Notes: a model not told the origin generated them from the letters alone. Shown: positions 14,552 to 40,619, counted from the first letter of the stretch. The stretch is 64,000 nucleotides of DNA from Bacillota bacterium (GCA_050951805.1 JBMNJT010000003.1:129163-193162), one strand, 5' to 3'. A program made the numbers and translations.

Positions 14552-14554
14552 CTT

Positions 14555-19078: not shown

Positions 19079-19117
19079 TTCCAGTTGACTCAAGCCTCTA
19101 GGAAACCCAGGCCGCAA

Positions 19118-21213: not shown

Positions 21214-21276
21214 TCTCCATACCTCCGATCAATTATGGGCTCTGCTGCAAAAGCGTCACTTGTCTGTCGCTAGCTC

Positions 21277-22116: not shown

Positions 22117-25100
22117 GGCCTGTCCACCGCCTCCACATTCTTGAACATGCTGAGTGTCACGAGCAGGTCAGCCAGAGCTTCCTTCCCCTCGTCAACAGTG
22201 CCCTGTTGGAGAAGCGCATTCCGAATGTAACTTGCGCGGGTGATGATCCGGACGCATTCTATGCCCGAGTGGAAGCGCTCCAGTAAAACCTCGTTCATGG
22301 CCGCAAAGATCTCCGTATTCTGGTCATGGATGAAACGATGAACCTGGACATCCCCATTGCAGCCCAGCTCGACTTGGTCTCCCCTGATCGTCACTTCGAG
22401 TGTGATGTCGGGGACAGACTTTTCGTCCACTGGGGCAAGGCAGGGGCGGAACTTGCCTTCACCTAGGAGATATGCAAGAAACATCATTGCTGAACTCGCA
22501 TTTATCTGGCTTGCCCATGGACGAGATTCATAGCCCCTAAGGCACCTGTGGCAACCTTGCCTGTCGCAGTCGCAGCTTGCCACAATCTCATAGGCTTCCG
22601 CAAAAAGCTCCATCGAATCGAGATCCGCATAGATATCCTCGAGTCGCAGACAGTTGTTGCCGGTTGCATCGTATAGCGCCACGTATACAACTCTGTTAGA
22701 GCCCGGCAAGGGCGAATCGGAACTTGGGACGAAGTCGGCATCTATCATCATGCCGATTTCAGAATCATCCAGCTTGTACATGCTCTTGATCCCTCTGAGG
22801 ATGGCGAGGGAGGTGCTTATGTAAAGCGATGCGTCGCCGCATACATCCCGCTCAAAACCGAAAACGAGCGTTTCCCGTTCCATCGGATACTCGATGATGA
22901 AATGCCGTTCTGTCGATTGATCGAGGAAACCTGTATCTTTTCTTCGATCGGGGCTGATCGGGCCCCTGTTTGCGATGGTGAGCTGGGCATGGCGTGAATA
23001 TCCGGCCCATAGCACGGCTCTGTAATTGCGCCCCGTATCTATTCGGTCGAGTTTGCATACGATATCTTGCCTGAGAAGGCGTGGACGCTTCTCCGCAAAG
23101 AGCTCGTCTTTTTGCGCGGCGAAGGCGCGATAGACGCGGGACTCGTCGAAAGCAAGCCCCTCTGCCTGGCGGGATTCATATTCCCCGGACGCAAGGATTA
23201 TGAAGACGTCTCCTGCCATGTGAACCTGTTGGCCCGGCACGAATATGTAGGCTGCTAATTCTGGGTCGCGTGAGGATATGATGATTTCATCGGTGAACGT
23301 GTGCGCCCCTATCTCTTTTGCACGCCGGAGACCCTCTTCATCGCAGACAAGCACTTGGTCGTCCCTGAAAGCAAAGTCAGGCATTAGGTTCGTCTGATTG
23401 TAAAGGAACTGCTCGAAGGAGCCCACCCGAGAAGCGGCGGGTTCCTTCAATGCTTTGATCGCATTTGAACACAGCTTGTTCCCGAGGTATTGGCCTATAT
23501 CCATCGGGACATCGATGACGTTTCTTATCTCCTCTGCGAACCTCTCCGGCTCTTCAGCAATTTCTGCAATCCTCTGCCGGAAGCCCGCTTCATCCGAGAC
23601 ATGTCCTGCAAGCGCCATGGCGTTTGCATGCTCGACAGCGACTTTGAGGTTTTTGGCATTGAATGCCGGCGGTGAAACCACACCATCTATCATTCTGTGG
23701 GGATCATGGTAATAGACCATGTCGTTGGGGTTCTGTTCCGAACAGATTGTGACGATCAGCGAGTGCCCGCCACCTTGGCCCCGTCCTGCCCTGCCCGCCC
23801 TTTGGGCGTAATTCGCCGGTGTAGGGGGCACACCCATGAGCAGGATGGCTTGAAGCTTCCCAATGTCGATGCCCAATTCCAGCGTGGGCGTAGCCACTAC
23901 CATGCTTATCTTGCCTGCTGCGAAATCTCTTTCGGTGTCAACACGGTCTACCCGCCTGATTTCAGCGCTGTGAGGCCTTACCCGGTCTGCAAGCTCTTGC
24001 CAAACCTCATGGATTGACGCAAATTCAGACGGTCCTAGGTCGAATTTGAGCTGTTTGGGGGATATGTAGAAATACTGTTTGCCATCGGGTGTGATCCGTT
24101 CGAGAAGCGGCCCGCGGCTGACAAGATCTTTAACTATCGACTTCACCTTCGCCTCTCCGGTTCTGGCTACCATCTTCAGATGTTTGCAGTTGGGGTTGGT
24201 CGACAGCGCTCTGCCGGGGTAGTCACGTAATCCAGAGCGTTGCCCCTCGAAATGGATGCCCAAAAGCGATGTGGCCTGGTGGAGCGAGTATCTTATCGCC
24301 CGACCCTCGAGGTCTGCTGGCAGACGCGGAGCTTGCTTGAGTATGGCGCGTTCCTCCACAAAGACTGACAATACGTCGAGTTCATCCTGCTTAAACTGGT
24401 CAGCATCGACAATCTGCATGAACTCGCGCTTTGGCCCAATGTTGCGCGAAGGAATTGATATGAAGCGGGCAAACCAGACATCGAATTCCTGTGCAAGATT
24501 GCGTTCAGGCTCGGACATCCCGCTGGCGAACTCGGCCAATTCCTCTTGAAGGCCGAGGTGAGCTTCTTCGATATTGGATGGGTTGTGTTGAAGGCAGTAT
24601 ATCCTCAGCATTTCCTCAAAAAGGGCTGAGGCGAACTCATCGTCAAGGATTCGAGATTGTCTGGTGGCTTGCTCACGGCTGTCAACGAAGGCAAGCAGCT
24701 TTCTTCTGGGCCTAGTGGTATCCAGCATGGAACGGGCTATGCAATGCGTGTATTGATAGTCGGCAAACTTTGGCGACATCAAAACCCCAAGCGCCTCTAT
24801 TGCCTCGTCACCGTCTACGCGGAGACGTTCTATAGATAACGGCCCGTTCTCATCGTAAGCAAACTCAATTGACCCGTAACCGCCGATCTGCGCTATGGAG
24901 ACCCTGAAGGTTTCTGTGCAACCTCTGCCTTCCGCCGGCGCATCGTATCCGACAAGAACATATACTTGCAATCCTCGACTGCCCTCATCCGCTTCGAGGT
25001 GAGGAAGCAGGCGGCTGCTTTCAAGCCTGGCGATGCATTTTGCTGTATCTTTGCCATACACGAAGAACAGGGGGGCGCCACATTTGGTGCAGCTTTCCGA

Positions 25101-26543
25101 TTGCCCGGCGTGATACTTCCCACACCTGATGCATCTTCTGAGCAGGCCTTGGATTTCGTGCATGAAGAGGTGGACTCTGAAGTCGAGCACAGGATCGGGA
25201 CGGTTGTGCGGATTTGGATACGCTCTTGCAATGCTCGAGTCTATGAAAGATGCAGCAGCCAGAGATCCCCGCAGAATCTCTTCCGGGCTGCCTGCTCCGG
25301 ATATAGCGTCACTTACGGCGCCTGACAACTCCTCCATGGACTTCGACCCTTTGCGCAACGACTCTGCGATCGCTTGCATGCACGGGCTCGAAAGAAGGAG
25401 CGCGCGTGGGCCATCCGGTGCCAAAAGCCGATCAGGATCGGCGAGATCTTCGCGGGTGAAAGAGGTGCCAAGTAAGGAGTTGAGGTTGGCTAGCGCGGCG
25501 CCGGGAGAGTCCATTGAAGCCACATTGTATCTGAAAACCTTGCACGCGTTCGTGGTTGCGGATTGCAAGTTTGCCTGTGGCGGGTTTTCTGGACGGCCTG
25601 ACTTGGCAGCCGGACGCACAAGGTCGTATTCGTCTGGCGCTACGTCCAACAGCGGACAGATGAACCTGTTCACAGCTTCGCCCGAGTTTCTTGAATCCAA
25701 TGTGGCACTGCAACATATCTGCACGACGGGATTGGGAACGGCGTTCTTCAAGCGCCTGAGGAGAAATCGAAGGTGAGTCGCGCGATTGCCCTTATAGCTA
25801 TGGACTTCATCTAGCACGACAAAACGCAGATGATGGCAGCACTCTGTGAAAAGCCAGCGCTCCTGCGAGCGAGTGAGCATCCTGTCGAGCATCACGTGGT
25901 TGGTGACCAAAATATCGGGCGGTTCTGCCAGCATCTCGGATCTGTAAGCCAGATGGAAACGGCTCTCTCTTTCTACCGTTGCTTCCAATTCGTCGCGGGG
26001 AGTATCGCCGGTGTATACACCGTATGTTATCTCCGCTGCCGAGGCGCATTCGCCTATCCGCCGGAGCTGGTCGGCGGCCAGCGCATTTGTGGGATATACG
26101 ATGACAGCCTTTATCCCTTTTTCACGTTCGCGAAGACAGTAGTCGATTACGGGGATGAGGAAGGACTCGGTCTTGCCGCTTCCCGTTCCGGTGGCGATCA
26201 CGGTATGCCGGCAGGACGAAATGCTTCGGACAGCTTCCTCCTGATGCGCGTACAGCCGCTTTATTTTGGGGAATGGACCAGGAAGATTCTTGCTGAGGCC
26301 TATGGCTGCGCACAATTGGCCAAAGGGCAGTGCGCTCATCTCATATCGCGGGTTTGCCGAAAGAAAAAGGCGGCCGCTGAGCTCGAGAGATTCCATTATC
26401 CACTTGACATCTGAATCCCTCGACACCCCGGTCTTTAGAGCGTGTCTCGCCAGGTTGGCATAGGCATCGCTTACATGCTTTGCAGCCGCGATCGGGTCAT
26501 ACAAGCCGCCGCCATCACGTTGCATATAGCCTGCCCCCCCCAC
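22113..26543 (-). CDS. Large SF2 DEAD/DEAH helicase with DUF1998 Zn domain (YprA/DruE/DpdJ-like)
   Basis: LYAHQ, TGTGSGKT, VYPTNALAADQ, YTGDT, PPDILVTN, DEVH, CSAT, ATPTLELGIDIG, YAQRAGRAGR, internal CIRC..CTKC, LYDATG and CDC...GCHRCL. Start is GTG 26543 or ATG 26525. Confidence 0.9.
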   Translation of the reverse strand: MGGAGYMQRDGGGLYDPIAAAKHVSDAYANLARHALKTGVSRDSDVKWIMESLELSGRLFLSANPRYEMSALPFGQLCAAIGLSKNLPGPFPKIKRLYAHQEEAVRSISSCRHTVIATGTGSGKTESFLIPVIDYCLREREKGIKAVIVYPTNALAADQLRRIGECASAAEITYGVYTGDTPRDELEATVERESRFHLAYRSEMLAEPPDILVTNHVMLDRMLTRSQERWLFTECCHHLRFVVLDEVHSYKGNRATHLRFLLRRLKNAVPNPVVQICCSATLDSRNSGEAVNRFICPLLDVAPDEYDLVRPAAKSGRPENPPQANLQSATTNACKVFRYNVASMDSPGAALANLNSLLGTSFTREDLADPDRLLAPDGPRALLLSSPCMQAIAESLRKGSKSMEELSGAVSDAISGAGSPEEILRGSLAAASFIDSSIARAYPNPHNRPDPVLDFRVHLFMHEIQGLLRRCIRCGKYHAGQSESCTKCGAPLFFVYGKDTAKCIARLESSRLLPHLEADEGSRGLQVYVLVGYDAPAEGRGCTETFRVSIAQIGGYGSIEFAYDENGPLSIERLRVDGDEAIEALGVLMSPKFADYQYTHCIARSMLDTTRPRRKLLAFVDSREQATRQSRILDDEFASALFEEMLRIYCLQHNPSNIEEAHLGLQEELAEFASGMSEPERNLAQEFDVWFARFISIPSRNIGPKREFMQIVDADQFKQDELDVLSVFVEERAILKQAPRLPADLEGRAIRYSLHQATSLLGIHFEGQRSGLRDYPGRALSTNPNCKHLKMVARTGEAKVKSIVKDLVSRGPLLERITPDGKQYFYISPKQLKFDLGPSEFASIHEVWQELADRVRPHSAEIRRVDRVDTERDFAAGKISMVVATPTLELGIDIGKLQAILLMGVPPTPANYAQRAGRAGRGQGGGHSLIVTICSEQNPNDMVYYHDPHRMIDGVVSPPAFNAKNLKVAVEHANAMALAGHVSDEAGFRQRIAEIAEEPERFAEEIRNVIDVPMDIGQYLGNKLCSNAIKALKEPAASRVGSFEQFLYNQTNLMPDFAFRDDQVLVCDEEGLRRAKEIGAHTFTDEIIISSRDPELAAYIFVPGQQVHMAGDVFIILASGEYESRQAEGLAFDESRVYRAFAAQKDELFAEKRPRLLRQDIVCKLDRIDTGRNYRAVLWAGYSRHAQLTIANRGPISPDRRKDTGFLDQSTERHFIIEYPMERETLVFGFERDVCGDASLYISTSLAILRGIKSMYKLDDSEIGMMIDADFVPSSDSPLPGSNRVVYVALYDATGNNCLRLEDIYADLDSMELFAEAYEIVASCDCDRQGCHRCLRGYESRPWASQINASSAMMFLAYLLGEGKFRPCLAPVDEKSVPDITLEVTIRGDQVELGCNGDVQVHRFIHDQNTEIFAAMNEVLLERFHSGIECVRIITRASYIRNALLQQGTVDEGKEALADLLVTLSMFKNVEAVDRP

Positions 26544-26578
26544 TGAAGAAGTATGAGGGTTTAGAACCTAATCATGAT

Positions 26579-26606
26579 ATTCGCACCAAATAGATGAATA
26601 CCCTTC
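26579..26606 (-). promoter_or_regulatory. sigmaH-like promoter for the helicase arm
   Basis: Minus-strand GAAGGG-N16-GCGAAT. Confidence 0.55.
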
Positions 26607-26716
26607 TAGATTCGTCCATACCATTTGCGAGAATTGCATGAAATTTGTAGGCACAAGGGCCGGAAAAGGCGTTACGCAATGTGCAGTCGATCGATTTTCA
26701 CTATATTTGAAAACAG

Positions 26717-26744
26717 GAAGGGATCCTAATAGCTTCCTGCGAAT
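26717..26744 (+). promoter_or_regulatory. sigmaH-like promoter for the NTPase arm
   Basis: GAAGGG (26717-22), N16, GCGAAT (26739-44). Boxes and spacing are identical to the opposite-strand motif. Confidence 0.55.
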
Positions 26745-26811
26745 CAATTACATTATGGAACAACAATCGTTCCATTCATGTTCAATACTGAAAAGACGGG
26801 AGGGAATCAAC

Positions 26812-29800
26812 TTGGCCTCGACATCGATATCGAGGTTCTACGACTGGTTCGTTGACACGCTCACAGATGAGAAGCTCGATCAGGTGATCGATGAGGTCGT
26901 GGGGGGCGCAAAACATGCGGGCGCACCGCGCAAGCGTCCCCCCAAAGGAGGCTCGCTGCCCATTCTGCCACCCGACTGGAAAACTAGGTTCAGTTCGGAA
27001 CAGAAGCGAGAATTCGTGGCAATGATGTGGAAACGCGGCGTAAGGGAATTCACCGAGCACTTCCATGAGGAATACGCAGAGTGCAAGGAAAAAACAGACT
27101 CGTACACCCTCGACAAGATCGAGGATGAAAAGGACGAACTGATCAGCGCCTACGGAGGTCCGGCTGTTGTCCTTTGCCTGGTGTTGCAGCCACTCGACTA
27201 CAAGCAGGAACTGGGCCTTCGGATCATGGATGAGCTTGGCGACACGTGCAAAGCGCCTCGCCTCAGCGGACATGGGTCTTACGACTTGGCTTTAGGATTG
27301 CGAGATATTGCATCGGCGCTTCGCTCAGGCGAAATCGATGTCTCTGAAGACTCGATGGAAGCTGCCCTTTCTGATGTAGCCAGAGCATGGGCCGAATACA
27401 AGGAGACAAGCGTGGAGAGGCTCATCACTCGGATCGAGTCGACGCTCAACTTGATGGCAGAGCCATACACCGCATATTCATCCTTTTTCAAGGTTGCCCC
27501 GGGCCTTCCTATGGAAATAGGCGCATATGATAGCCTTGATGGGGATGACGCCCGGGCGGTCTTAGCCGAACTTGAGGCTGTGGCCGACAAGGTCAACGAG
27601 ACACGTGAGTTGTTATCACGGCCAGGATTGAGTATCGATGAAGTCGAAGAGCAGCTTACTGCCGCGAAAGCTGCGCATGAAGAAATAGCGGCGGCAACCG
27701 AACGGGTTATGACGCGCTTGCCCCAGAAGCCTAATCCCCCCGAGGATCCTACCCCCCAAAACGACTCAGACGGCAAGAAGATTCACCACACCCAACCGCC
27801 AACCCCGCCTGAGCCCGATCCCCAGTCCAAAGAAAAGGGATCTTGCTCGAAATCTACATCGGACTTGGATCCAGGATTGAATGGCCCCTCCGAGGGTGAA
27901 CCTGAGCCAGAAGAGGAGCCGGACACTGACATAACATCAGATGAGGAGCCTGGCGAGGCAGAAGAGACTAGTAATGAGTGGGCTGATGGGGAATCCCCGA
28001 GTGCTGAAGCCTGTCCCGCACAGTCTGAAGCGGAGCCAGAGCCTGAAGCAGAACCCGAGCCGGAGATTGAATCGGTTAGGCTCCGCACTTGTCAACGGGA
28101 AGAGTTGTCCCAACCCTGTGATCTGAAGTCCGCTATCAGAGATGCGCTGGCCGCCAAGGATTACGTTGTCGCTTACTGGTTGGCTCGCGAAGCTGAAGCC
28201 AGTAATCGCGCCAGTTTAACGTTGCCTTCATGGCTCTATGCCGCGTGCTGCCTGGGTTCGGGCGAGTACGCTGCGAACCCGTATGCTCTACGGGCCCTCG
28301 ACATCATCTACACAGAGCATTCAGCCCCAATGAGCGAGATACGTGGAGAGCGGAGGCCTGGCGAAAGCCATGCTCCCTATTACGTCATTGCCGCCTCCAT
28401 TGGTCCCGCCTTGTTCTCTCCCGACTATGCGGCCTTGGAATGGTTGAGGGATGCAGAACGCAACCTTGGTGCCAAAGATGAGACCCTTGTCTTGCTGGTA
28501 AGAGAGGTCCTAGATCTTCGCGCGCGTGTGAGCGGGGGCGTAGCTTTCGCGCTTGGGACTCAAGATCAGCGAGCCTCAGCAGTTGATTGGGGCGAAATGG
28601 CCAGCATGACGGCTCGACGGATTGAAGATTGGGTCGAGGTTACAAGAACAGCCAGGAGCAGGTACCTTCACGCTACTCGGGCCCAAAACTACCTTGCTAG
28701 CGTTGAGTCGCCTCTTTGGCCTGCAATCGAAGCGGCTATGAGCAATGACCCGAGCCGCATCGATACAGTGAATTCTGCATTGAACAGTGATCTATCAGGG
28801 CGTAAGGCCATGGAAACACTCATTGATAATGCGGTGAAGATTACTTCGGCCACAGCCCCGAAGCGAATAGCGCTCGAGGGGCGAACTCGGGACGACGTGC
28901 TCAAGAAGGTGGAAAACCTTGCCCAACTTCTTAGCGACTGGAGCGCAGCCGTTGCCCATGAGAGAGCGTTCCAGTATGGCGGTGGCTCTGGTGAAGGTGT
29001 GACGGCCCGATTGAGGCATATCGGCAAGCTGGCTTCGGAAGCCAAAGGCCAACTCTCGGAAGATGGAGGATCTGCTACTGCTCTGTCGGATGCCCTTGAA
29101 ATGGTGGCAAAAGCGATTGATGACGGCGTGCTGCCGCAATCCGCGGATGGCACAAGCATGTGCGATAGCGCATGGAAACGCGAACTCGTGTGCCCTCTCT
29201 TGCTAATTGCCAACCCACCCGCTGAGGAAATATCTAAATGGTTGGAACAGGGAAGCTTTGGGCTGCCCGACTTCGAGTCGACACGCAATGGGAAGCCGGG
29301 CTTTTCTGAAACCGCAAATCTCGCTGCTGAAAGTATGGAGGAGGCATTCTATGCCCACATCGTTCGCGGAGACTTTCCTGCGGCGCGGCTTGCCATGTCT
29401 TACCTGTCGCCCGTAGATGATGAGCATGAGTCAACTCGTTCAAAGATCAACGCCGCATATGACAGGGCTGTGAAAAGTCTGACTAGGGAAGCCATGAATA
29501 GCGTGAAGACAGCCCGCAACAAACTGGAGGAGTCGACTCTGATGCACTTCGTCAACGATGCGGCGCGAAGCCGGCTTGAAGGGGAACTTCTCACGGCCGA
29601 GGATTGGCTTGCAAGATCCCAAAGCGCTCCATCAGAAGCGGTGAATGTAGGAGAGGTATCCGCTCAAATCGATGCTGTCATGAGAGAACTCGATATCCTC
29701 AAGAAGGAACGCGCTCGATCATTGGCTCGACAGGTAGAAGAGTTCGATCATCAGTTGGATGTCGGACAGAAGGACCTGGCGCAAGAGGTTGCCAACGCGG

Positions 29801-32781
29801 CGCGGATGCATCTTCAGACTGCGCGCCAGAAGCTGGCGGAAAACGATCTTGTGTTGGCAGATCATTACATTGTCACTGCCGAGCAGGTGGTGGATCTTGG
29901 AGAGGTGTTTGAGGCCGAAGAGAAGTCTCCCAAAGATCACCCATATGTTCTGGAGTTCTGCGACATTGCAGGCAAGATAGAGCGCTACTTGGAGGATTAC
30001 AGAGGACGTCCCGCAGATCTCGTGTCAACGATTCTCCGCATCCGAAATCCTATCGGGCTCAATATGCGGCGCGTTCCCCCCAAGCGCGTCGAAGAGGCAG
30101 AGGCCGGCCTTGAAGCCTACTTCTTCCTCAAAGGCAAACGAAGATCGGCAGATGAACCATGGTTTGCCGACAACCTCAAGCTGCTTTTGAGCTTTGTAGG
30201 GTTTGGCAGGCCGAAAGTATCACTCACTGCATATGACTCGCAGTACGCTTACTTCAAAGCCACCATGGATGGCGAGAATATGTCGCCCCTGGCCGATTTC
30301 GGTTCTGAGCGAAATCGTTGCTACGATGTGGTGTTGATGTACGAGCGGCCTAGCATCACGCAGATGCGTCAGATACTTGGAAGGCACGGCCTGGAGACGT
30401 CTAGACCTGTTATCATCTACATGGGCAGAATGCGGCCTGCCCAAAGAGGAGAATGGAGTGCTGCCTGCAGGGCTGAAAGGATCACCGCCATGTTTATCGA
30501 TGAGGTTCTTCTGGTCTTTCTCGCCTCAGTCAGAGACAACAGACTGGAAGCTGCTGTAGAGTGCGGAACCGCCTGGGGGTGGGCGATGCCCTACAAATCA
30601 GCAGGTAAGATTCCCCCTGAGATCTTCATGGGACGGAAGCAGATGATAAGGCAGATAGGCGAGCCCCGTGGAAGCTCGCTTGTATATGGGGGTCGGCAAT
30701 TCGGAAAGACGACCCTTCTGCACATGGTCGTACGCGAGTATCATCGTCCGGAGCGTGGAAGCTTTGCCTGGGTTGAGGAGATCAGGAATGTAGGTTCGCC
30801 TGAGGATCCCTATGGTTCCTCCCGGGTATGGCAACTCATATGGAAAAAGCTTGTGGAGTTCGAGCTGTTTCCCAAAACAAAGTCGGGTTCGTCTAGGGAC
30901 GCTCAGTCACCTGATGAGATATCTTCCCGCATAGAAAGGCGCTTGAATGATGACCCGACGCTGAGAATTCTCGTCCTATTAGATGAAGCTGACCAATTCT
31001 TAGAGTGCGAGAAGAGAAGCAACTTCGATGAGCTCAGCCGAATGCGCACGCTCATGGAAAAGACCGACTACCGCTTTAAAGTGGTCTTCTGTGGCCTCAA
31101 AGACGTCCAGCGTTACTACACAGAGGTCAACCATCCGTTCGCCCAGCTGAGCAAGCCAGTGGAGGTTGGGGCGCTAGAGCCTCAGGCAGCAATAGCCTTG
31201 ATAAAGGGACCCATGGAGAGCTTGGGCATCTTCTTCGAAAGCGAAGATGTCGTCACCAGGATACTCTCATACACCAATTACCATCCCGCCCTCATACAGC
31301 TGTTCTGCGCCGAACTGGTAGAAAGGGTTCGCTCGCGGAGCGACGAGCCCCCATATACCTGCACCATGCAGGATGTTGAAGACATCTATCTGACTGAATC
31401 GTTTAGGATCGAAATGCGGAACCGTTTTGAATGGACCATTGCCTTGGACCCAAGATACCAGGTGATAGTGTATGCGATGATCCTGGAGCAATTGGACGAG
31501 AGCGACGGCTATCGGAAACGGTTTTCGGTATCGGAAATAGGAGAGATGGTGGAGGCCTATTGGCCCGAGGCATTTAGCGGGGCCGGCGTCGGCGACCTCC
31601 GTCCCCTTCTGGACGAGCTGATCAGCCTTGGAGTTTTGGTGAGGACCGAGGACGGCCTGTACCGTCTCAGAAGCGCCAATGTGGTTCGGGCGCTCGGTTC
31701 GCCGGGCGACATCATGTCGCGGTTGGAAGACATCATCTCGAAACCGCCGCCGTCAGATGACAAGTCCAGCATACTTCGGGTGGAGAGAGGGAAGGGCCAT
31801 ACGAAATGGGGGTCTATCACTCTATCTCAGGCGAGGGAGTTGGCGAGACCAGCCTCAGGAATTGCCCTTGTGTTTGGCAGCAACGCCCTGGACATCAATG
31901 GAGTAAGGCCAGCGCTGCAGACATTTCTCAAGCCTACAATGGACGCGGGGCCTGACTTGTTTTCGGTATCAGAGATGCCGGCAAGCTGCAAATCGGCAAG
32001 GGATGTTGTAGCGGCCATAAACCGCGAAACTTCGCGGCCGGTTACAGGTCGACGTATCATGTTCTCGAAGTCGTCATGTATGACGTTGACTGCAGAGAAC
32101 ATGGCAGAGGCGATGGAGACGGTCGGGGCCAGGCTCCAGAGGTTTGCAAGGGGCGGGCGAGAAGTAGCCAAGTGGATCCTGCTTCTTCATCCTGCAGAGG
32201 CGGAACAATGGTTCCTCATGCCCGAAAACGCCAGGGCCGGGATCGAGCAGCACATAGTTTCCGAGGCCAAGCTCGCCAAGTGGGATAGGGAGATGATTGC
32301 GCACTGTCTCGAATGCGAAGACCTGATAAACACCTCTCACGCAGTGAACTGCGTATACGAAGCCACCGGCGGATGGCCGTGCCTCATGTCGCAGTTTATG
32401 AAACGCGCTCTTGCTTGGCATAAAGAGACTCAGAATCCGGATGTGTCTGGGCTGGCGGCGCAGTTTGAAAAGGATTTTCTGGACAACGAGGGTGGTATGC
32501 GCGATCGTTTCATCGCTAGCTCTGGTATAGACGCCATCACATGTGGGCGGCAGATTGCACGCCTCGTTGCCGAGCTGGGACCCATGACATTGGAGGATCT
32601 ACACAGCGCATGCAAGTTGGAGGAATACCCTGAGTTGGCCAAGCTTTCCCCGGAGTCCATAGAGGCGGCGGCAGCGGCCTTCGTGGCATGCAGAGTTTTC
32701 GACGGCGAAGGTTTAGCCGGGGAATCCTCATTCCTGCTCACGTGCGACCCGACAGCAGCAAAGGTGGTGCTACTGCCTTGA
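26812..32781 (+). CDS. Giant (~1990 aa) STAND-like P-loop NTPase
   Basis: PY...IFMGRK, Walker A GGRQFGKT (30688-711), Walker B LVLLDEAD, YHPALIQ, a wHTH-like segment, then a second degenerate module ending ATGGWP. Probable TTG start at 26812 after GGGAGGGA; the ORF is open from 26638. Confidence 0.8.
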   Translation: MASTSISRFYDWFVDTLTDEKLDQVIDEVVGGAKHAGAPRKRPPKGGSLPILPPDWKTRFSSEQKREFVAMMWKRGVREFTEHFHEEYAECKEKTDSYTLDKIEDEKDELISAYGGPAVVLCLVLQPLDYKQELGLRIMDELGDTCKAPRLSGHGSYDLALGLRDIASALRSGEIDVSEDSMEAALSDVARAWAEYKETSVERLITRIESTLNLMAEPYTAYSSFFKVAPGLPMEIGAYDSLDGDDARAVLAELEAVADKVNETRELLSRPGLSIDEVEEQLTAAKAAHEEIAAATERVMTRLPQKPNPPEDPTPQNDSDGKKIHHTQPPTPPEPDPQSKEKGSCSKSTSDLDPGLNGPSEGEPEPEEEPDTDITSDEEPGEAEETSNEWADGESPSAEACPAQSEAEPEPEAEPEPEIESVRLRTCQREELSQPCDLKSAIRDALAAKDYVVAYWLAREAEASNRASLTLPSWLYAACCLGSGEYAANPYALRALDIIYTEHSAPMSEIRGERRPGESHAPYYVIAASIGPALFSPDYAALEWLRDAERNLGAKDETLVLLVREVLDLRARVSGGVAFALGTQDQRASAVDWGEMASMTARRIEDWVEVTRTARSRYLHATRAQNYLASVESPLWPAIEAAMSNDPSRIDTVNSALNSDLSGRKAMETLIDNAVKITSATAPKRIALEGRTRDDVLKKVENLAQLLSDWSAAVAHERAFQYGGGSGEGVTARLRHIGKLASEAKGQLSEDGGSATALSDALEMVAKAIDDGVLPQSADGTSMCDSAWKRELVCPLLLIANPPAEEISKWLEQGSFGLPDFESTRNGKPGFSETANLAAESMEEAFYAHIVRGDFPAARLAMSYLSPVDDEHESTRSKINAAYDRAVKSLTREAMNSVKTARNKLEESTLMHFVNDAARSRLEGELLTAEDWLARSQSAPSEAVNVGEVSAQIDAVMRELDILKKERARSLARQVEEFDHQLDVGQKDLAQEVANAARMHLQTARQKLAENDLVLADHYIVTAEQVVDLGEVFEAEEKSPKDHPYVLEFCDIAGKIERYLEDYRGRPADLVSTILRIRNPIGLNMRRVPPKRVEEAEAGLEAYFFLKGKRRSADEPWFADNLKLLLSFVGFGRPKVSLTAYDSQYAYFKATMDGENMSPLADFGSERNRCYDVVLMYERPSITQMRQILGRHGLETSRPVIIYMGRMRPAQRGEWSAACRAERITAMFIDEVLLVFLASVRDNRLEAAVECGTAWGWAMPYKSAGKIPPEIFMGRKQMIRQIGEPRGSSLVYGGRQFGKTTLLHMVVREYHRPERGSFAWVEEIRNVGSPEDPYGSSRVWQLIWKKLVEFELFPKTKSGSSRDAQSPDEISSRIERRLNDDPTLRILVLLDEADQFLECEKRSNFDELSRMRTLMEKTDYRFKVVFCGLKDVQRYYTEVNHPFAQLSKPVEVGALEPQAAIALIKGPMESLGIFFESEDVVTRILSYTNYHPALIQLFCAELVERVRSRSDEPPYTCTMQDVEDIYLTESFRIEMRNRFEWTIALDPRYQVIVYAMILEQLDESDGYRKRFSVSEIGEMVEAYWPEAFSGAGVGDLRPLLDELISLGVLVRTEDGLYRLRSANVVRALGSPGDIMSRLEDIISKPPPSDDKSSILRVERGKGHTKWGSITLSQARELARPASGIALVFGSNALDINGVRPALQTFLKPTMDAGPDLFSVSEMPASCKSARDVVAAINRETSRPVTGRRIMFSKSSCMTLTAENMAEAMETVGARLQRFARGGREVAKWILLLHPAEAEQWFLMPENARAGIEQHIVSEAKLAKWDREMIAHCLECEDLINTSHAVNCVYEATGGWPCLMSQFMKRALAWHKETQNPDVSGLAAQFEKDFLDNEGGMRDRFIASSGIDAITCGRQIARLVAELGPMTLEDLHSACKLEEYPELAKLSPESIEAAAAAFVACRVFDGEGLAGESSFLLTCDPTAAKVVLLP

Positions 32782-34115
32782 TTGACATGTCGGCGAGAGT
32801 CAGGTCCTTGCCTGGACCGTCGTGGGCGGCAGGCAGTGTTGTGGATGATCTGTGCATGGGCCGCGGGGTCGTTTGGGCCTTCCCGCGGCCCGCTCCCGCA
32901 ATAGAACTCATCACAGAAACAGTGGACAGGCTTTATGATGCAGGCATTGAGACACACGTCGTAAGAGTGTCGGAGCATGTAGATCCCGAGGGAGGAAAAG
33001 CGAGGCAGCGCGACATGCCTGCCCTTGAAGACACGATCCGAAAGGTCACAGGAAAGGCAGCCCCCCGCGAGCTGCTCGATGGGAAATTCACCCCGGTAGT
33101 GACGGTCTTTGATGCCTTGGATATCTGCGACGAGGTTGCGCAGAAGGCTGTAGATGTGGGCATGATGACCACCCTTAGAGAATGGGCGGTTCAATCCAGA
33201 GAGGATTATCGCAGAACCGGCATTTTTGCAGGCGTGATGTTGGTCACTACGGGGAGCGTCGCGGCCCATGTCGCGCCCGACAACGATTGTCTCAGGACGA
33301 GATGGCACTGGGGGACAGTGACAGTTGCGGAGCTGTGCCTACTTGCGAGGGAGATCGCTGCAGATCTCAAACTTGGCTGGGAAAGATCCACATGGATGCA
33401 GTGGGTTGGTTCGGAAGTGGCGGGAACTGATCCCGCATTGCTGGTGCATTTGTGCGAGCAATGGGAGCCTGCTGAAGGAATGTCTCAGCTCATTAATGTA
33501 CTGTGTAGTTATGCAATGAGGCAAGGCTGGACGGCGAAGGACTACGCCAGTGTCCCTCGGAACCTGGGAGAGCCCTTTACTCCGGGTCGTACGAGGCGTC
33601 CGCCATGCCCGCCAGAGCATCTGGCGGCACTGTACGATTTGGGAATGCTGGACTGGGAGGCAGAAAGAGGCCTGCGCCTCCACTCAGCTGCGCTGGCTTT
33701 GGCCGGCGATGTGACGGAGATATCCCACAGAGTGTGGGCAGGGCAGGCAGGCTGTTTGCTTCCGCTGTTCGATAGAGAACGCCTCGAGATCTGCAGGCGT
33801 CTTGATGAGGAATCGGGGGGCTGGCGGAACTGGTGCGCAAGGACTGAAGACCGCAACTGCAGCGGTCTGGCTGTTTTCAATGACTCCGGCGCAGACCAGG
33901 CGGTGGATGAAGGTACTCCAGTGATGGAGTTTGCCGATATCCGTCAATACCTTAGCTGCAACAGAAATAGATCCACAGCGGCGTTGCTTAAGAGAGTCGA
34001 TTTTTTGACGAAGGCCCGCAATTGTCTCGCACATTATACCCCGCTGTCCTGGGAGAACTTTAGCGCTGCACTGAAATGGCATGGATCTGCTGAGGAGTTT
34101 GCGGGGAAGGGATAG
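32778..34115 (+). CDS. Hypothetical protein (~445 aa) with C-terminal HEPN-like RNCLAH motif
   Basis: TTGA overlap with the NTPase stop, SD AAGGTGG, and RNCLAH at 34017-34034. Confidence 0.7.
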   Translation: MIDMSARVRSLPGPSWAAGSVVDDLCMGRGVVWAFPRPAPAIELITETVDRLYDAGIETHVVRVSEHVDPEGGKARQRDMPALEDTIRKVTGKAAPRELLDGKFTPVVTVFDALDICDEVAQKAVDVGMMTTLREWAVQSREDYRRTGIFAGVMLVTTGSVAAHVAPDNDCLRTRWHWGTVTVAELCLLAREIAADLKLGWERSTWMQWVGSEVAGTDPALLVHLCEQWEPAEGMSQLINVLCSYAMRQGWTAKDYASVPRNLGEPFTPGRTRRPPCPPEHLAALYDLGMLDWEAERGLRLHSAALALAGDVTEISHRVWAGQAGCLLPLFDRERLEICRRLDEESGGWRNWCARTEDRNCSGLAVFNDSGADQAVDEGTPVMEFADIRQYLSCNRNRSTAALLKRVDFLTKARNCLAHYTPLSWENFSAALKWHGSAEEFAGKG

Positions 34116-34345
34116 GGCTTGGACATTGGCTCATGCTGATAGCTAGCGCGAGACCTCTGGGAAACCCCGATTAAATGAAGAAGCAGGTCTAAAGCAGGGG
34201 AGCGACTTCGGTCAATCCAGGCGATAGCAGCTAAACTTGCTGATGGGCTCATTCCACTTCAAAAAGTCTGAAAAGGAGCTGTTTGTCTGAGCAGTTCAGG
34301 CGCTGTCTAACTTGCTTAACCCCTACGGGGGCGGGGTATATAGGG

Positions 34346-34773
34346 TTACGAGTAGGTCGTAGATGCGAGGTTTTGTGGGGTTACGTGGTTGGTTGTGTGC
34401 GGCTTGGGCAAGGTTAGCTGACATGTCGGTGGGCTATGGATATAAGCAGGGGTGTATGGTAGGTGAAGCACGGTTGCGCATTCCAATTAATGTAATACAG
34501 CGAATATTTCGTAGCGTTTTGTGCTACACTACGAATATTTCGTGGACACAATGACATTTATAGGTAATATATAGGAAGTAATGTATATTGGGGCATACTG
34601 AGGTCGGATTGACCTCGTTTTGGGCTCGGCTTGGTGCTATATTTCTCCAATAATAGACATAGCATGCCACATAGCATCCAGATAAACCAATTAACCCTCA
34701 CGTTATGTTAACCTACATTTTGACCCTACGATTTTTTCGTAGCATAGGAAAAAACATTACGAGAAAATCGTAG
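34346..34773. repeat. Five 17-bp palindromic motifs, consensus YTACGA-N5-TCGTAG
   Basis: Copies start at 34346, 34498, 34529, 34726 and 34757. The last four form two pairs, each exactly 31 bp apart. Confidence 0.8.
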
Positions 34774-34877
34774 TGTCGGTGGCGATCGACCCACTCGTCG
34801 CATGGTTGACGAGTCTGCCTCTATAGCTCACACGAACAATGAAGCCGAGGACCGCAGGCTTTATCCCCAGCGCACTC

Positions 34878-35639
34878 TCAGTCGCAGCTTTCACTCTGCC
34901 TTTGAGTTTTGGCGAGATGACCCATATAGCTATCGTAGATCTGAGTAAGTTCGCTTACTATTGGCCCTCGCTGTCTATATTGCCGCAGTGGCAGCCACGC
35001 AACCTTTTGGAGCATTACTCGAAGGTTTAGGTCTTCTGCGGTTACCTCTACAAGCCGGACACCGTGCCGTGCACAAATCCCTGCCTTCGTATTGTCGCGG
35101 CGTTGCTGTTCAACCAGTGCCAACGGATCCGGATACATCAGGGTCGTCTGGAAGTGCTGCTGGCCTTGAAACTCGAAAGCTGTTCTCAACCCCTTATACT
35201 CACGATCAAACTCCATTTTGTGCCCTGTTGATGTCTGCCGAAGCCATTCAGGCCTCGAGTGGTCGAGGTAGTCAGCTGACACGACAAGATAGTCGAGCCA
35301 ACAAGTCATCAGCCATTCACCAAGATACGGGACATTCCACCTGTCGTTCCGTATTGACTTGGCAATCTCCGATTCCACCCTAACCGGCCAGGTGGTGACG
35401 ATTTGCCTCTGGCGAGCGCTAGGTTGCCTTAGATCCATAACCCATCCTTTGGATTTTAGATGTGCAACCGCTGCTCGTGCCGAGTCCAGTGATGAGCCAA
35501 TGCCTGCAGCGATGTTGCTGATTGATTCCGGGCGCCTTCCAATCAGGAACAGGTAGACACTCTGAGCCCGTGGACAGGCTCGAGTATCATTGAACAGAGC
35601 TTCTGGGATTGTGTGCTGAATGTGCTGTCGGAAGGACAA
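34878..35639 (-). CDS. wHTH + Vsr/DUF559-like endonuclease-fold protein
   Basis: SISNIAAGIGSSLDSARAAVAHLKSKGWV (wHTH), then RPEWL...MEFDREY...AFEFQGQQHF...RDNTK...GVRLVEV. Confidence 0.7.
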   Translation of the reverse strand: MSFRQHIQHTIPEALFNDTRACPRAQSVYLFLIGRRPESISNIAAGIGSSLDSARAAVAHLKSKGWVMDLRQPSARQRQIVTTWPVRVESEIAKSIRNDRWNVPYLGEWLMTCWLDYLVVSADYLDHSRPEWLRQTSTGHKMEFDREYKGLRTAFEFQGQQHFQTTLMYPDPLALVEQQRRDNTKAGICARHGVRLVEVTAEDLNLRVMLQKVAWLPLRQYRQRGPIVSELTQIYDSYMGHLAKTQRQSESCD

Positions 35640-35899
35640 CGCATTTCACCTCACGAAAAAACAGGTCAGGAACGTATTGATATTATCCACATAATACCAT
35701 CCACGGGTCGTGCAGGCAATATGGTCAGACGTTTGTCATCCTGGTTAGCCTGAAAGAACATCTCGTTGCGGGCAGATACTTCGAGAAGGGCCTAAGGTAA
35801 AGGCCTTTAGCACTGAATGGAGAAATCAAGCTTGGAGACTATCATGTTCGTTGGCTTGTCAAAAAACTCTGCGGGTCTTGAAAACCGGGCGAAAAAGGA

Positions 35900-36142
35900 G
35901 TGGCTGAGACTGTGAATAGGACGGGATCAGAGACGCCAATAAGGATCGAAGTTGAGGCGACGGGTGGAACCTCTGTTGCAGCGGGCGACAGGGTGCGCTG
36001 TGGTCAGGACTTGGGCATTTCCCCCGACTTTAGTGAACGTGTTGTGTGTCATGTCGATGGTTTGGTAGAAGCTTGTGTCTTCAACTCTGATACGCACAGG
36101 TTTGAGATAACAATCGTTCCCGATAATGCAAAAAAGGAGTAG
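35900..36142 (+). CDS. Small hypothetical protein, barrel-sandwich-hybrid-like
   Basis: SD-like AAGG before a GTG start. The V..GDRV..GQ.LG...V...DG.V pattern recalls biotinyl/lipoyl-like folds. Confidence 0.5.
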   Translation: MAETVNRTGSETPIRIEVEATGGTSVAAGDRVRCGQDLGISPDFSERVVCHVDGLVEACVFNSDTHRFEITIVPDNAKKE

Positions 36143-36208
36143 AGTAGACTTGCATCAGCAATGCGGTTTGATGAGAACTGGCTGAGCGGCCGAAGGAGGA
36201 CTAGAAAA

Positions 36209-36511
36209 GTGGTAAGGCATGTAGTCATGTGGAGCCTCGCAGATGAGGCTGCTGGCGGCGTTAAGCAGCAAAACGCAGCCATTATCAAGGAGGGGCTTGA
36301 AGCCCTTGTCGGGAAGATTGAAGGCTTAATCGGCCTGGAAGTAGGCATCAATGCCCTCGAACTTGCTGGAAACTACGACATAGTGCTCATAGCTGATTTC
36401 CAGGACGAAGCTGCTTTGGAGCGTTATCAGGTCCATCCCGAGCACGTGAAAGTAGCCGACTTCATAAAGAAGGTCAGGCTGGAGCGGGTTGCCGTGGATT
36501 ACCTAATGTAG
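36209..36511 (+). CDS. Dabb (stress-responsive alpha/beta barrel) protein
   Basis: MVRHVVMW...LVGKIEG...EVGIN...YDIVL..DF...L..YQVHPEH...DY. SD AAGGAGG. Confidence 0.9.
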   Translation: MVRHVVMWSLADEAAGGVKQQNAAIIKEGLEALVGKIEGLIGLEVGINALELAGNYDIVLIADFQDEAALERYQVHPEHVKVADFIKKVRLERVAVDYLM

Positions 36512-36550
36512 CATCCATAACAGATACAGATACCCGACAGATTTCCGGCC

Positions 36551-37240
36551 TCAGCCTAGCTTCTTCATGCTCTCCAGCATCTTCGGCACACCTGTAGTTG
36601 CTTTTTCCATGATGTGAGTTACTTCGCGCAACGATGAAAGAGCAACCTCCTTGGGATCTACCAGAAACACAGGAGCGTCAGAAGGAACGAACTGAACTAG
36701 TGCTGCGGCGGGGTAGACCACGAGGGAACTGCCTACTACGGCGAAAATGTCGGCGCTCTGGGCGATCTCCGCCGCTTCGGCCATTGCCGGCACAGGCTCC
36801 CCGAACCAGACCACGTGCGGCCTGAGTTGAGATCCTAGTTCGCATTTGTCTCCCCAGTCTAGTTCGGTGCCTTCTATGTCGTAGATCAGTGATGGGTCAG
36901 CTGTGGAACGCGATTTCTTCAGTTCGCCGTGGAGATGGAGCACCTTGGCGCTGCCTGCCCGCTCGTGGAGGTCGTCGATGTTCTGGGTGATTATATGTAC
37001 GTCGAAGTCCTCATCGGCTCTAGCAAGCGCCAAATGGGCAGCGTTTGGCTTTGTGCGGTAGAGCTCCCTTCTCCGCTGGTTGTAGAAGTCGAGGACCAGT
37101 TTGGGATCACGACGCCATCCCTCCGGGGTCGCTACATCCATGACGTCGTATTCATACCAGAGACCGTCTGAATCTCGGAAAGTCCTTATTCCGCTCTCAG
37201 CACTGATACCAGCGCCAGTCAGAACCACAAGCTTTTTCAT
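36551..37240 (-). CDS. cobB: NAD-dependent protein deacylase (sirtuin, CobB type)
   Basis: VLTGAGISAESGIRTFRD, TQNIDDLHERAG, HLHG, RPHVVWFGE, VGSSLVVYPAA. Confidence 0.93.
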   Translation of the reverse strand: MKKLVVLTGAGISAESGIRTFRDSDGLWYEYDVMDVATPEGWRRDPKLVLDFYNQRRRELYRTKPNAAHLALARADEDFDVHIITQNIDDLHERAGSAKVLHLHGELKKSRSTADPSLIYDIEGTELDWGDKCELGSQLRPHVVWFGEPVPAMAEAAEIAQSADIFAVVGSSLVVYPAAALVQFVPSDAPVFLVDPKEVALSSLREVTHIMEKATTGVPKMLESMKKLG

Positions 37241-37656
37241 GCGTCGAATATCATTCCCTTCCTCCAAGCCAAACACCGTGTTTATCTCAATGTCTGCCTT
37301 CCTGGGTGTGCCAACGAAGTGGCCCGGTGGCTGGCTCGAGTTTCCGTTGAAGGCTTCCACTACTTATTATACCAGTAGCCCCCAAGACGGGCAGATTGAG
37401 CGGCGTTGTCCCACACCACATGGTTGGTGATCTTCCCAGAGGTCGTGCTGAGGCGTAGACTATGGATTGGCCCGTTTGCCTGATTGGACTGGGGCTATCG
37501 CCTGGCCGAAATGACGAGACACCGCTACCTATAGGCAGTATCTGCTTCAAGCCGGTTCACGTATATCTTGCACGCAGCAACCCAAGCTCGACCGCCCTCC
37601 ACCCCTACTTGGGCCACCAACTGCAAACAGGGATAGCGCATACGCGCCGGAACGCT

Positions 37657-37684
37657 GAAGGTATACACATCCCCCATGACGAAT
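37657..37684 (+). promoter_or_regulatory. Possible sigmaH-like promoter for csrA
   Basis: GAAGGT-N18-GAAT about 40 nt upstream of the csrA ATG. Confidence 0.45.
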
Positions 37685-37725
37685 GCTACCTGAAACCGAG
37701 ATCCACCGGAGGGATGATAAAGGTT

Positions 37726-37959
37726 ATGCTCGTTCTTACACGGAAGGCCAAGCAGAGCATTATGATAGGTGATGGCATCGAGATCACCGTCGTCGAAATC
37801 AAGGGCGATGCGGTGAAGTTAGCCATCGACGCCCCGCGTGACGTTCCCGTCCATCGCCGCGAGGTCTACGAGGAGATCCAGCGCGAGAACAGGGAGGCTT
37901 CTTCTGCGTCGGTGGAGGATGTAAGCGCCATCGACAAGCTTCTGGGAGGGAGGCCATAA
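37726..37959 (+). CDS. csrA: Carbon storage regulator CsrA
   Basis: [55 protein letters not shown], with the C-terminal extension typical of FliW-partnered CsrA. Confidence 0.97.
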
Positions 37960-38002
37960 CCCTCACTTTTCTCACCGGGATTCAAATAGTACACTTGAAC
38001 CA

Positions 38003-38029
38003 TAAACTCCTTGCTGCATATGCCGATAA
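38003..38029 (+). promoter_or_regulatory. sigma28 promoter for flaG-fliD-fliS
   Basis: TAAA (38003-06), N15, GCCGATAA (38022-29). Confidence 0.88.
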
Positions 38030-38146
38030 CAATACCAGAGCCTGTTCTCTTGGCTCTCTGGTTTTGTGTGGTTTGCGGCTTTCGCATTTGTTGTGGCGCT
38101 GGGCATGGAAGCTAGGCCCTACAGATAGAGCATGGAGGTGTTGTCT

Positions 38147-38455
38147 ATGCGCCCAGACAGGATATCAGGAGTATCTTCCATTGATACGCAAGTCTCGAAA
38201 ACCGTGTGGAACTGGCAAACGCCCAGAAGACAACAGGATGATGTGAGGGCTCAGGTGCGACGGGCAAACAAGGCGCTTGAGGCCCTCGAAGTCCAGGCGA
38301 AGTTCTCGGTTCACGAGGGCACCGGGCAGATCGTGGTCAAGCTTGAGGATACGGAAACAGGGGAGATTCTGAGGGAGATTCCCCCAGAAAAAATGCTCGA
38401 CCTTGTCGCCCAAATGACCGAGATGGCTCGTGGGATAATCAACGAAAAACCTTGA
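38147..38455 (+). CDS. flaG: Flagellar protein FlaG
   Basis: KFSVHEGTGQIVVKLED.ETGEILREIPPEKMLDL. Confidence 0.93.
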   Translation: MRPDRISGVSSIDTQVSKTVWNWQTPRRQQDDVRAQVRRANKALEALEVQAKFSVHEGTGQIVVKLEDTETGEILREIPPEKMLDLVAQMTEMARGIINEKP

Positions 38456-38466
38456 ATTGGAGGTGA

Positions 38467-40581: not shown

Positions 40582-40619
40582 TGGAATGCAGGGCGGCCAA
40601 TGGAAGGGATGGCGGTTCG

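Follow-up and report, generated by a model that had tools for sequence, protein, structure and literature searches.

A 64,000-nucleotide stretch of DNA from a Bacillota bacterium (GCA_050951805.1, JBMNJT010000003.1:129163-193162), referred to here as the window and numbered from its first letter, carries two adjacent genes encoding a giant ATPase of about 1989 residues and a partner of 442 residues. The giant and its partner are two translationally coupled genes that constitute a self-contained, horizontally mobile module. In the predicted structures the giant possesses two tandem NODs, one with an intact nucleotide-binding site and one without a P-loop, and the partner joins a third NOD lacking Walker A to a predicted HEPN RNase domain. 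We consider it moderately probable that these two mobile genes form an NLR/STAND-type module, directed most likely against phages or plasmids, in which the NODs gate the HEPN RNase. The observations behind this proposal are the domain anatomy of the two proteins, the conservation of their motifs, the linkage of their genes, their patchy and mobile distribution, and the defence-like neighbourhoods in which they are found. Here, we describe a computational analysis that followed up an earlier note on this DNA, in which a tandem STAND NTPase coupled to a HEPN-motif protein had been proposed.

Architecture of the giant ATPase and its partner

The open reading frames of the window include one of 2047 codons at 26638..32781 and a second, overlapping frame at 32688..34115; both are on the + strand, as are all features of the pair given below. 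Homologs of the giant begin to align only at about residue 56-59, and the closest of them, P0007 (77% identity over the C-terminal part, N-terminus MASTSISRFYDW), has a start that aligns with a TTG codon at 26812, which is preceded by GGGAGGG. On the strength of this alignment and of the GGGAGGG sequence, we place the start of the giant gene (26812..32781, about 1989 aa) at that TTG, where the earlier note had also put it; residue numbers are counted from ATG 26638, on the 2047-aa longest frame, and not from TTG 26812. The partner gene (32787..34115) encodes 442 aa from ATG 32787, 5 nt past the giant stop codon, the other candidate start being TTG 32778, in a TTGA overlap with the stop. With a threshold of E 1e-3, a full HMMER scan for the partner returned 387 representative relatives, nearly all of them 400-460 aa long. 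A promoter and terminator scan found fewer sites than in shuffled sequence, and none that was usefully placed. All of the motifs quoted in the earlier note are present in the translations of the two genes and conserved among homologs; because many of their residues are invariant or at least 90% conserved across 48 giants and 81 partners, they are not chance matches.

An AlphaFold2 model of giant residues 1180-2047 (868 residues, 67-row alignment, pLDDT 90.7, pTM 0.84) comprises a small alpha/beta domain, then NOD1, then NOD2. NOD1 (residues 1316-1688; 30583..31701), an AAA+/STAND-type module recognised by Pfam, VIA and Foldseek, is modelled as a five-strand core bearing the Walker motifs, a helical lid and a winged helix. 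The translation has a PY..FMGR motif at residues 1318-1333, followed by the Walker A sequence GGRQFGKT (residues 1351-1358; 30688..30711), six of whose eight residues (G1351, G1352, R1353, Q1354, G1356 and K1357) are invariant in the 48 giants; the pattern GG[RK]Q.GK[ST] is matched by 80/80 giants from genome loci. D1449, E1450 and D1452 of the Walker B sequence LLDEAD (residues 1447-1452; 30976..30993) are likewise invariant in the 48 giants, and a Walker B pattern is matched in 76/80 loci. The YHP motif (residues 1548-1550) lies within TNYHP, of which T1546, N1547 and H1549 are invariant in the same set. AAA_22 alone was matched by Pfam in the giant (residues 1344-1491, E 3.3e-6), and it was found at the same place in 24/24 homologous giants; nSTAND1 matched 4/24, two of them above the cut-off. 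The nearest Pfam models are AAA_22, AAA_16, ATPase_2 and nSTAND1.

The structural neighbours of NOD1 are headed by two archaeal proteins. In VIA comparisons the model (residues 138-509) aligned with PAB2304 (2qen) at Z 20.4, with 323/350 residues aligned at a root-mean-square deviation of 4.2, and with SSO1545 (2fna) at Z 19.2. NLR resistosomes followed at Z 16.8-18, ORC/Cdc6 proteins at 14.5-16.5, MuB and TnsC at about 15, CED-4 at 14.5, MalT at 12.3, BrxC at 12.0, Avs5 at 11.1 and Avs3 at 11.0. Foldseek also placed PAB2304 first for the giant model (4.7e-8, TM 0.68 on target), the next matches being the two-ring AAA+ proteins p97, ClpC, Hsp104 and dynein, with ~700 columns aligned. NOD1 as modelled, with Walker A and Walker B motifs, an AAA+-type core, a lid and a winged helix, has the NTPase motifs and the domain build of a STAND/NLR ATPase, and the intact STAND-like module described in the earlier note is upheld by the invariance of the Walker motifs, the core-lid-winged helix order and the fit to 2qen.

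NOD2 (residues about 1714-2047; 31777..32778; model residues 535-868) has no Pfam match in the window giant. It is modelled as a five-strand alpha/beta core, a lid and a winged helix, in the same element order as NOD1. HHalign aligns NOD2 with NOD1 weakly (34% probability, P 4.4e-4) but in register, residues 1732-1848 falling on 1339-1446, and places the degenerate P-loop LVFGSNAL (residues 1744-1751; 31867..31890), which is on the strand at model residues 562-567, on the P-loop strand of NOD1. In this area A1750 is invariant and G1741 and S1748 are at least 90% conserved in the 48 giants, with no GK[ST]; L1744 and F1746 are at least 90% conserved in 109 giants. The TGGWP motif of NOD2 (residues 1910-1914; 32365..32379), with G1912 invariant and T1910 and W1913 at least 90% conserved in the 48 giants, is the counterpart of TNYHP in NOD1, each motif (model residues 731-735 and 367-371, respectively) lying between two lid helices. 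We accept the description of the modules as tandem because of the shared element order, the in-register HHalign match and the equivalence of TNYHP and TGGWP; model, alignment and motif conservation agree with the second module, degenerate in its P-loop and retaining GGWP, that had been claimed from the sequence.

The model of the partner (AlphaFold2, 81 rows, pLDDT 87.4, pTM 0.88) adds a further module. Its residues 1-308 (32787..33710) resemble ORC/STAND proteins lacking Walker A in the AlphaFold2 model and by both Foldseek, which returned ORC2 (1w5t, 2.3e-5) and then Cdc6, RFC, PAB2304, NLRs, Avs4 and Apaf-1, and VIA, which matched PAB2304 (2qen, Z 11.3), 2fna (10.4) and Avs5 (9.7-9.9). The consensus of 81 partner sequences contains no GK[ST]. 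The earlier note had seen that the N-terminal half of this protein is alpha/beta, as it is, and had not recognised it as a NOD without Walker A. According to these models the partner begins with a third NOD devoid of a nucleotide-binding loop, NOD3; modules without a P-loop are thus predicted on both proteins, and the architecture exceeds the one first described, with three NODs versus two.

The remainder of the partner, residues 309-442 (33711..34112), is assigned to a Swt1-like HEPN domain from its PF18731 relatives and HHalign. The model has helices at residues 309-342, 346-361, 382-391, 395-415 and 422-438, most blocks having pLDDT >90. The sequence ARNCLAHYTPL, noted earlier as fitting the HEPN RxxxxH consensus, corresponds to residues 410-420, and the Rx4H catalytic motif within it, RNCLAH, to residues 411-416 (34017..34034). 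Conservation of the R and H across homologs had been suggested as a check: R411 and H416 are invariant in the 81 partners, N412 and A415 are at least 90% conserved, and among full-length partner frames from genome loci Rx4H occurs in the last 90 residues in 54/54 and RNxxAH in 48/54. The PF18731 (HEPN_Swt1) model is matched by 19/81 partner relatives at E 0.05 or better (best 2.9e-6), over profile positions 6-114; one of 40 relatives exceeds the cut-off, with 28.0 vs 27.5 bits. Furthermore, we compared a profile of the partner C-terminus with 21 PF18731 domains taken from other proteins in 21 genomes, none of them at a giant locus; in two of these genomes (G292 and G390) that also have a giant, the PF18731 domain sits elsewhere. 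HHalign gave 94.1% (E 1.2e-7, 99 columns) and put the partner RN.LAH on the RN..AH of PF18731, with four control profiles at 0.6% or below. The relatives, the profile alignment and the invariant motif together make the HEPN fit one of homology to the PF18731 family, and the C-terminus of the partner is, by sequence, a Swt1-like HEPN domain and a predicted RNase. Elsewhere in the genome of the window, the sole weak PF18731 match is at G000:C8:245192-245329 (L108; E 0.028, 15.8 bits), in a 615-aa frame. A complex prediction with giant residues 1704-2047 and the whole partner scored 0.00 twice and, having been run without controls, counts neither way.

Upstream of its ATPase modules, the giant consists of regions that diverge far more rapidly, the N-terminal half being far less conserved among giants than the NODs. 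Residues 59-360 (26812..27717), with a mean column conservation of 0.17-0.34, were not matched by Pfam at an E of 0.01 or below. They are followed by the Pro/Glu-rich acidic linker that the earlier note had placed at ~27720-28070 and that is present in the translation at residues about 361-495 (27718..28122), with a homolog occupancy of 0.47-0.66 and low conservation. Residues 496-1179 (28123..30174) make up a region with better conserved positions, among them A512, Y513, W514, W602, W768 and R1025, and are a candidate sensor or scaffold. No Pfam match was found in the N-terminal 1200 residues of 24/24 homologous giants, nor in their last 350, and an Atlas search with the N-terminal 1122 residues of the giant gave no usable match. 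The long, fast-evolving N-terminal region as a whole is presumed to be a sensor or scaffold. The small alpha/beta domain that precedes NOD1 (residues 1180-1300; 30175..30537; model residues 1-120, pLDDT 89-97) is modelled with the element order helix, three strands, helix, strand, helix, strand, and its G1222 and D1288 are invariant in the 48 giants.

At the level of named families and solved structures, the two proteins stand apart. NCBIfam and PADLOC yielded zero families for giant and for partner (PADLOC E 0.1 or better), and sequence searches of solved structures detected no relative of either: a profile search of the PDB gave nothing credible, the best matches being Hsp70 for the giant (E 0.14) and L7Ae for the partner (E 0.16).

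Linkage, distribution and expression of the pair

Relatives of the ATPase part of the giant were found in at least 584 species genomes from Bacillota, Chloroflexota, Cyanobacteriota, Myxococcota, Acidobacteriota and other phyla. The earlier note had made linkage of the two genes in other genomes a point on which its proposal turned, and the genes are indeed linked. Among 80 loci kept, 70 were long enough for the presence of a partner to be judged; the partner lies downstream of the giant in 51 of these, with a 4-nt overlap with the giant stop in 20 of the 51. Near-full-length giants were present in five of 400 further genomes sampled from the window's phylum, and 4/4 assessable loci among these had the partner. 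Pairwise distances of giants and partners are correlated across 54 loci (Mantel r 0.89, with 0/999 permutations as high); the nearest neighbour is identical for giant and partner in 20/54 loci only, and shared ancestry contributes to the correlation. The pair is also found amid housekeeping genes in three loci (L022, L024 and L025), adjoining polysaccharide-synthesis and chemotaxis-receptor genes in L024. As the pair occurs in such surroundings, we conclude that the two genes move together as one unit.

Nineteen of the 70 loci have no partner, and 17 of these carry instead a PLD-SNF2 helicase of ~1100 aa, usually overlapping the start of the giant gene. In a FastTree phylogeny built from the C-terminal parts of the giants, the loci with the helicase only group in a single derived clade of cyanobacteria with 99% local support, whose sister clade carries HEPN partners. 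Most simply, a single loss or replacement of the partner would explain this pattern. The giants of several cyanobacterial loci without a HEPN partner (L079-L105, L068, L073, L096 and L103) are ~2400 aa long, with the extra length at the N-terminus, and are translationally coupled to the ~1100-aa PLD-SNF2 helicase; both partner and PLD-SNF2 helicase are present in L057. The possibility that the 2400-aa giants contain a fused partner was rejected, since the best E with the partner profile was 0.12, no C-terminal RN..AH was found and these giants end with the same NOD2. Partner-like frames of 660 and 555 aa in L069 (5248..7230) and L100 (11716..13383) overlap the giant end by 600-700 nt and may be start-codon artefacts of open reading frame calling, or altered or fused forms.

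The distribution of the family is that of mobile genes. The tree of giants mixes phyla, and relatives occur in 25 plasmid records, one Salinibacter plasmid carrying the same pair; no phage record matched the NTPase part. On a Bradyrhizobium elkanii plasmid (L107, 2023..12978), the same NTPase module occupies the C-terminal third of a 3100-aa protein annotated as 'RNaseH domain-containing' and the next gene encodes a 549-aa 'AAA family ATPase'; from this arrangement we conclude that the NOD cassette is reused with other N-terminal regions and partners. A 2.8-kb contig binned as Methanothrix (L001) has a partner 69% identical to that of the window, which could reflect mis-binning or gene transfer.

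In order to survey the neighbourhoods of the pair, we scanned two genes on each side of it in 26 loci (104 proteins) with PADLOC at E 1e-10 or better. A flanking match was present in 17/26 loci, the matches including Dsr2, PglZ/BrxL/BrxA, SIR2-HerA, type IIG restriction-modification, SoFic, pPIWI and PADLOC candidate families. Neighbour clustering found no antitoxin-like small gene conserved with the pair, and neither clustering nor the flank scan found a conserved methyltransferase, PglX-like gene or PglZ.

Traces of expression come from public sequence sets: a 2.7-kb region spanning the junction of the two genes was found in metagenomes from sludge, digesters and landfill as well as in six RNA libraries. 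Contigs of four RNA runs from two studies cover the pair, of which one spans 26800..34593 unbroken and those of the other three runs start at 26769, 26792 and 26765; the junction of giant and partner is bridged by a contig in 4/4 runs. These contigs are compatible with a single transcript starting just upstream of TTG 26812. One contig ends at 26453, and the contig edges within 26453..26800 suggest a transcript boundary in the intergenic region between the giant and the gene divergent from it.

A gated RNase and the explanations that compete with it

In the mechanism that we propose, the giant would supply an N-terminal sensor or scaffold, one working ATPase (NOD1) and a copy without a P-loop (NOD2), and the partner would supply NOD3, also without Walker A, fused to the Swt1-like HEPN RNase domain. 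The three kinds of NOD would assemble as a hetero-oligomer, in the manner of active and inactive ORC or clamp-loader subunits. A cue from an invader, sensed by the N-terminal half, would lead to ATP binding or hydrolysis by NOD1 and thereby to rearrangement of the assembly, upon which two partner HEPN domains would meet, form a composite Rx4H site and cut RNA, arresting growth or infection. It is established that HEPN RNases need a composite active site drawn from two domains (reviewed in PMC3710099). In one cyanobacterial clade the PLD-SNF2 helicase-nuclease would take the place of the RNase partner. Binding of the two proteins, the oligomer, its trigger, RNase activity and a defence phenotype would all be required of such a mechanism, and the suggestion of the earlier note, that the dimerisation of HEPN is under the control of active and inactive NTPase domains, is plausible and agrees with the anatomy. 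A more specific version of this proposal is tentative, and we think it possible rather than probable: the NODs may form an asymmetric NLR-like ring of three types in which one ATP site licenses HEPN pairing, with an exchangeable effector slot and with the N-terminal half as a new invader sensor. If true, such a ring in the style of ORC or clamp loaders would be an arrangement so far undescribed for bacterial immunity.

Several observations weigh against the proposal of a gated defence RNase. The N-terminal ~1100 residues of the window giant contain no Pfam domain or repeat family. The sequence match between NOD2 and NOD1 is weak, and the fold of NOD2 is a prediction of the model. Fold searches with the whole partner returned NOD matches only, the HEPN call resting on sequence, and neither the Pfam scans nor a whole-genome PF18731 scan gave a direct PF18731 match for the window partner itself. 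Many of the helicase-only loci come from Microcoleus genomes that are related to one another and cannot be counted as independent. DNA may be present in RNA libraries, and a single transcript is not proved by a contig over both genes. In nine of the 26 loci none of the four flanking genes is matched by PADLOC, some of the matches elsewhere are to generic methyltransferases or SMC-like ATPases, and in one of the 17 the match is a sigma-54 activator alone. Finally, the neighbours of NOD1 among ORC, MuB and TnsC-like proteins, the winged helices and the helicase partners would equally fit a machine that acts on DNA.

This last point is the basis of the alternative that survives best, although we judge it unlikely. 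The pair would be a DNA-directed, restriction- or BREX-like machine, in which the giant is a DNA-binding or scaffold ATPase in the manner of BrxC, DUF499, ORC, MuB or TnsC that works with a helicase-nuclease, and the HEPN protein is a backup or suicide effector. It accounts for the likeness of NOD1 to ORC/Cdc6, MuB, TnsC and BrxC, for the winged helix that follows each NOD, and for the coupling of a PLD-SNF2 helicase to the giant in one clade and its position after the partner in L057; in L021 the gene after the partner encodes a ResIII-type helicase, and HEPN proteins are described as accessories of ATPase-helicase systems (PMC3710099, PMC12839542). The top structural neighbours, however, are of the STAND class (2qen, 2fna and NLRs), with the DNA-loading ATPases below them, and PADLOC gave no BrxC, Hma or DUF499 match for the giant. 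A methyltransferase conserved with the pair, as noted above, was not found, and a PLD-SNF2 gene accompanies the HEPN partner in only 3/51 loci (L047, where it is far upstream, L057 and L083), with none nearby in the other 48. The small alpha/beta domain before NOD1, with its order of helix, three strands, helix and strand, could also serve such a machine, but its nuclease-like identity is only putative.

That the pair has no role in defence, and instead serves mobile elements as an addiction or selfish module or regulates the RNA metabolism of the host, appears improbable. Relatives on plasmids, their patchy distribution, the nine loci without defence-like neighbours and the appearance of the genes in RNA libraries with no known infection are all consistent with it, and HEPN domains are reported to occur in toxin-antitoxin pairs too (PMC3710099). 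Against it, the giant, a sensor-like protein of 2000 aa with one half diverging quickly, does not resemble known addiction modules, 17 of the 26 loci have defence-like neighbours, relatives are absent from phage records, and no conserved antitoxin-like small gene was found.

The remaining explanation concerns the gene that diverges from the giant in the window. This gene (22113..26543, - strand) encodes a YprA/DruE-like helicase of 1476 aa with DEAD, Helicase_C and MZB domains and a PADLOC DruE3 match of 2.9e-75, and it heads an operon (19873..26543, - strand) that also contains a 279-aa gene without a family match and a TPR-cold-shock fusion (PADLOC 6.8e-61). Only 3/86 loci, namely the window, L021 and L062, have a YprA helicase with MZB next to the giant; in the latter two it lies directly upstream of the giant and in the same direction. 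These helicases are dissimilar: those of the window and L021 share two short BLAST segments of 39-41% identity, and that of L062 is best matched by DruE1. Among other loci of the pair, the TPR-cold-shock gene occurs in one (L039) and the 279-aa gene in none, and for this reason we treat these two genes as a separate system. Additionally, the contigs of the RNA runs break between the giant and partner and the divergent helicase unit. The rarity of the adjacency, the dissimilarity of the helicases and the contig break lead us to regard the helicase as an island neighbour outside the pair, most likely belonging to a separate TALON/TOTE-like operon. The report on TALON describes a rare system composed of a YprA helicase and the TPR-CSD and TBP genes of TOTE (Bell et al. 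2025), and the helicase operon of the window appears by analogy to resemble TALON/TOTE-like systems, a likeness that does not extend to a demonstrated NERD nuclease or TBP. It is accordingly very improbable that the pair is an accessory of the helicase in a Druantia- or TALON-type system with the giant as DruH, an idea that the DruE3 match and the arrangement in L021 and L062 would favour and that is opposed by the 3/86 adjacency, the mutual dissimilarity of the helicases, the separate operon and contig break, and the lack of a PADLOC DruH match for the giant.

Both units lie within 12700..37400, between a flagellin gene (11206..12681) and csrA-fliD-fliS (37462..41048), which appears to be a variable island inserted into the flagellar gene cluster. 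It also contains a group II intron (14639..16404, + strand) with Rfam D1-D4 and domain V/VI matches and a reverse transcriptase/maturase frame at 15249..16310, and beside the intron a UPF0236 transposase fragment (13394..14260, - strand). A Sir2-family gene at the island edge (36551..37360, - strand; Pfam 5.8e-40), which has no PADLOC match, is probably a housekeeping deacetylase.

Relation to known systems

A literature search found no study testing the pair, subscription journals lying largely outside its coverage. The family is widespread, being present in at least 584 species genomes, yet it is matched by no PADLOC or NCBIfam model. Like Druantia type III (DruH-DruE), the window places a DruE-like YprA helicase beside a large protein without annotated domains; unlike that system, the giant has no DruH match by PADLOC, linkage to YprA is limited to 3/86 loci and the helicase has its own TALON/TOTE-like companions. 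The example cautions that a large gene beside a DruE-like helicase is not always part of Druantia. The archaeal ATPase_2 proteins PAB2304 (2qen) and SSO1545 (2fna) are the best structural matches of NOD1 and NOD3. They differ from the giant in consisting of a single module of ~350 aa at 6-16% identity, and the titles of their entries mention neither a HEPN partner nor a role in defence.

Two kinds of ATPase system pair comparable components. BREX combines active BrxC with BrxB, an inactive STAND protein, and HEPN-DUF499 ATPases occur in BREX-related and Hma systems (PMC12839542, PMC3710099). BrxC and BrxB resemble the pair in joining an active ORC/STAND-type ATPase with an inactive STAND protein, and the HEPN-DUF499 systems resemble it in attaching a Swt1-family HEPN to an AAA+ module; an SNF2-PLD helicase is often found as a companion. 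The HEPN domain is N-terminal on an active ATPase in the DUF499 proteins, whereas it is C-terminal on an inactive module in the pair. PADLOC gave no BrxC, BrxB or Hma match, and the likeness to BrxC (Z 12.0) is at the level of the fold only.

The Avs proteins (Avs3, 8dgc; Avs4, 8dgf; Avs5, 9jap and 9nc9) share with the pair a NOD composed of an AAA+ core, a lid and a winged helix, as well as very large size, a variable region presumed to act in sensing and a defence-island context. In contrast to Avs, the pair has its effector on a separate protein, its variable region at the N-terminus and without detectable TPR, and two extra NODs without Walker A. No PADLOC Avs model matches giant or partner.

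The nearest precedent in gene organisation is the nSTAND2 operon, which the accessible text of an in silico study describes as a mobile operon of two genes whose products each contain a STAND module; one of these modules has eroded NTP-binding motifs and is fused to GT4 or HEPN, and a toroidal hetero-multimer was predicted (Kaur et al. 2021, PMC8195603). As here, the STAND genes are adjacent and the eroded module of the partner is fused to HEPN. The differences, as far as that text goes, are that each nSTAND2 protein has one STAND core, with no ~2000-aa protein, tandem NODs or long N-terminus mentioned; that nSTAND2 is placed near CR-ATPases, S29/DAP3 and RNA12, and the modules described here are nearest to AAA_22, AAA_16, ATPase_2, nSTAND1, 2qen, 2fna, NLRs and ORC; and that GT4 effectors are common in nSTAND2 operons, whereas no partner among the 150 matches listed here is long enough for GT4. 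Our Pfam scans matched no family named nSTAND2, the presence of an nSTAND2 model in Pfam being unconfirmed; PF20704 and PF20719, considered as such models, were rejected, as both are other families. Compared by text description only, the pair may belong to the same family as the nSTAND2 operon, which we regard as possible, though less likely than not. The idea of an active STAND protein acting with an inactive STAND-HEPN protein is thus not new, having been predicted in silico in that study (PMC8195603). If the pair is a defence system, it would add a large and common family to the bacterial NLR-like repertoire, would provide a natural case of active and dead NODs split across two proteins, and could show how a pseudo-ATPase controls an RNase effector and how RNA-cutting and DNA-cutting effectors are exchanged.

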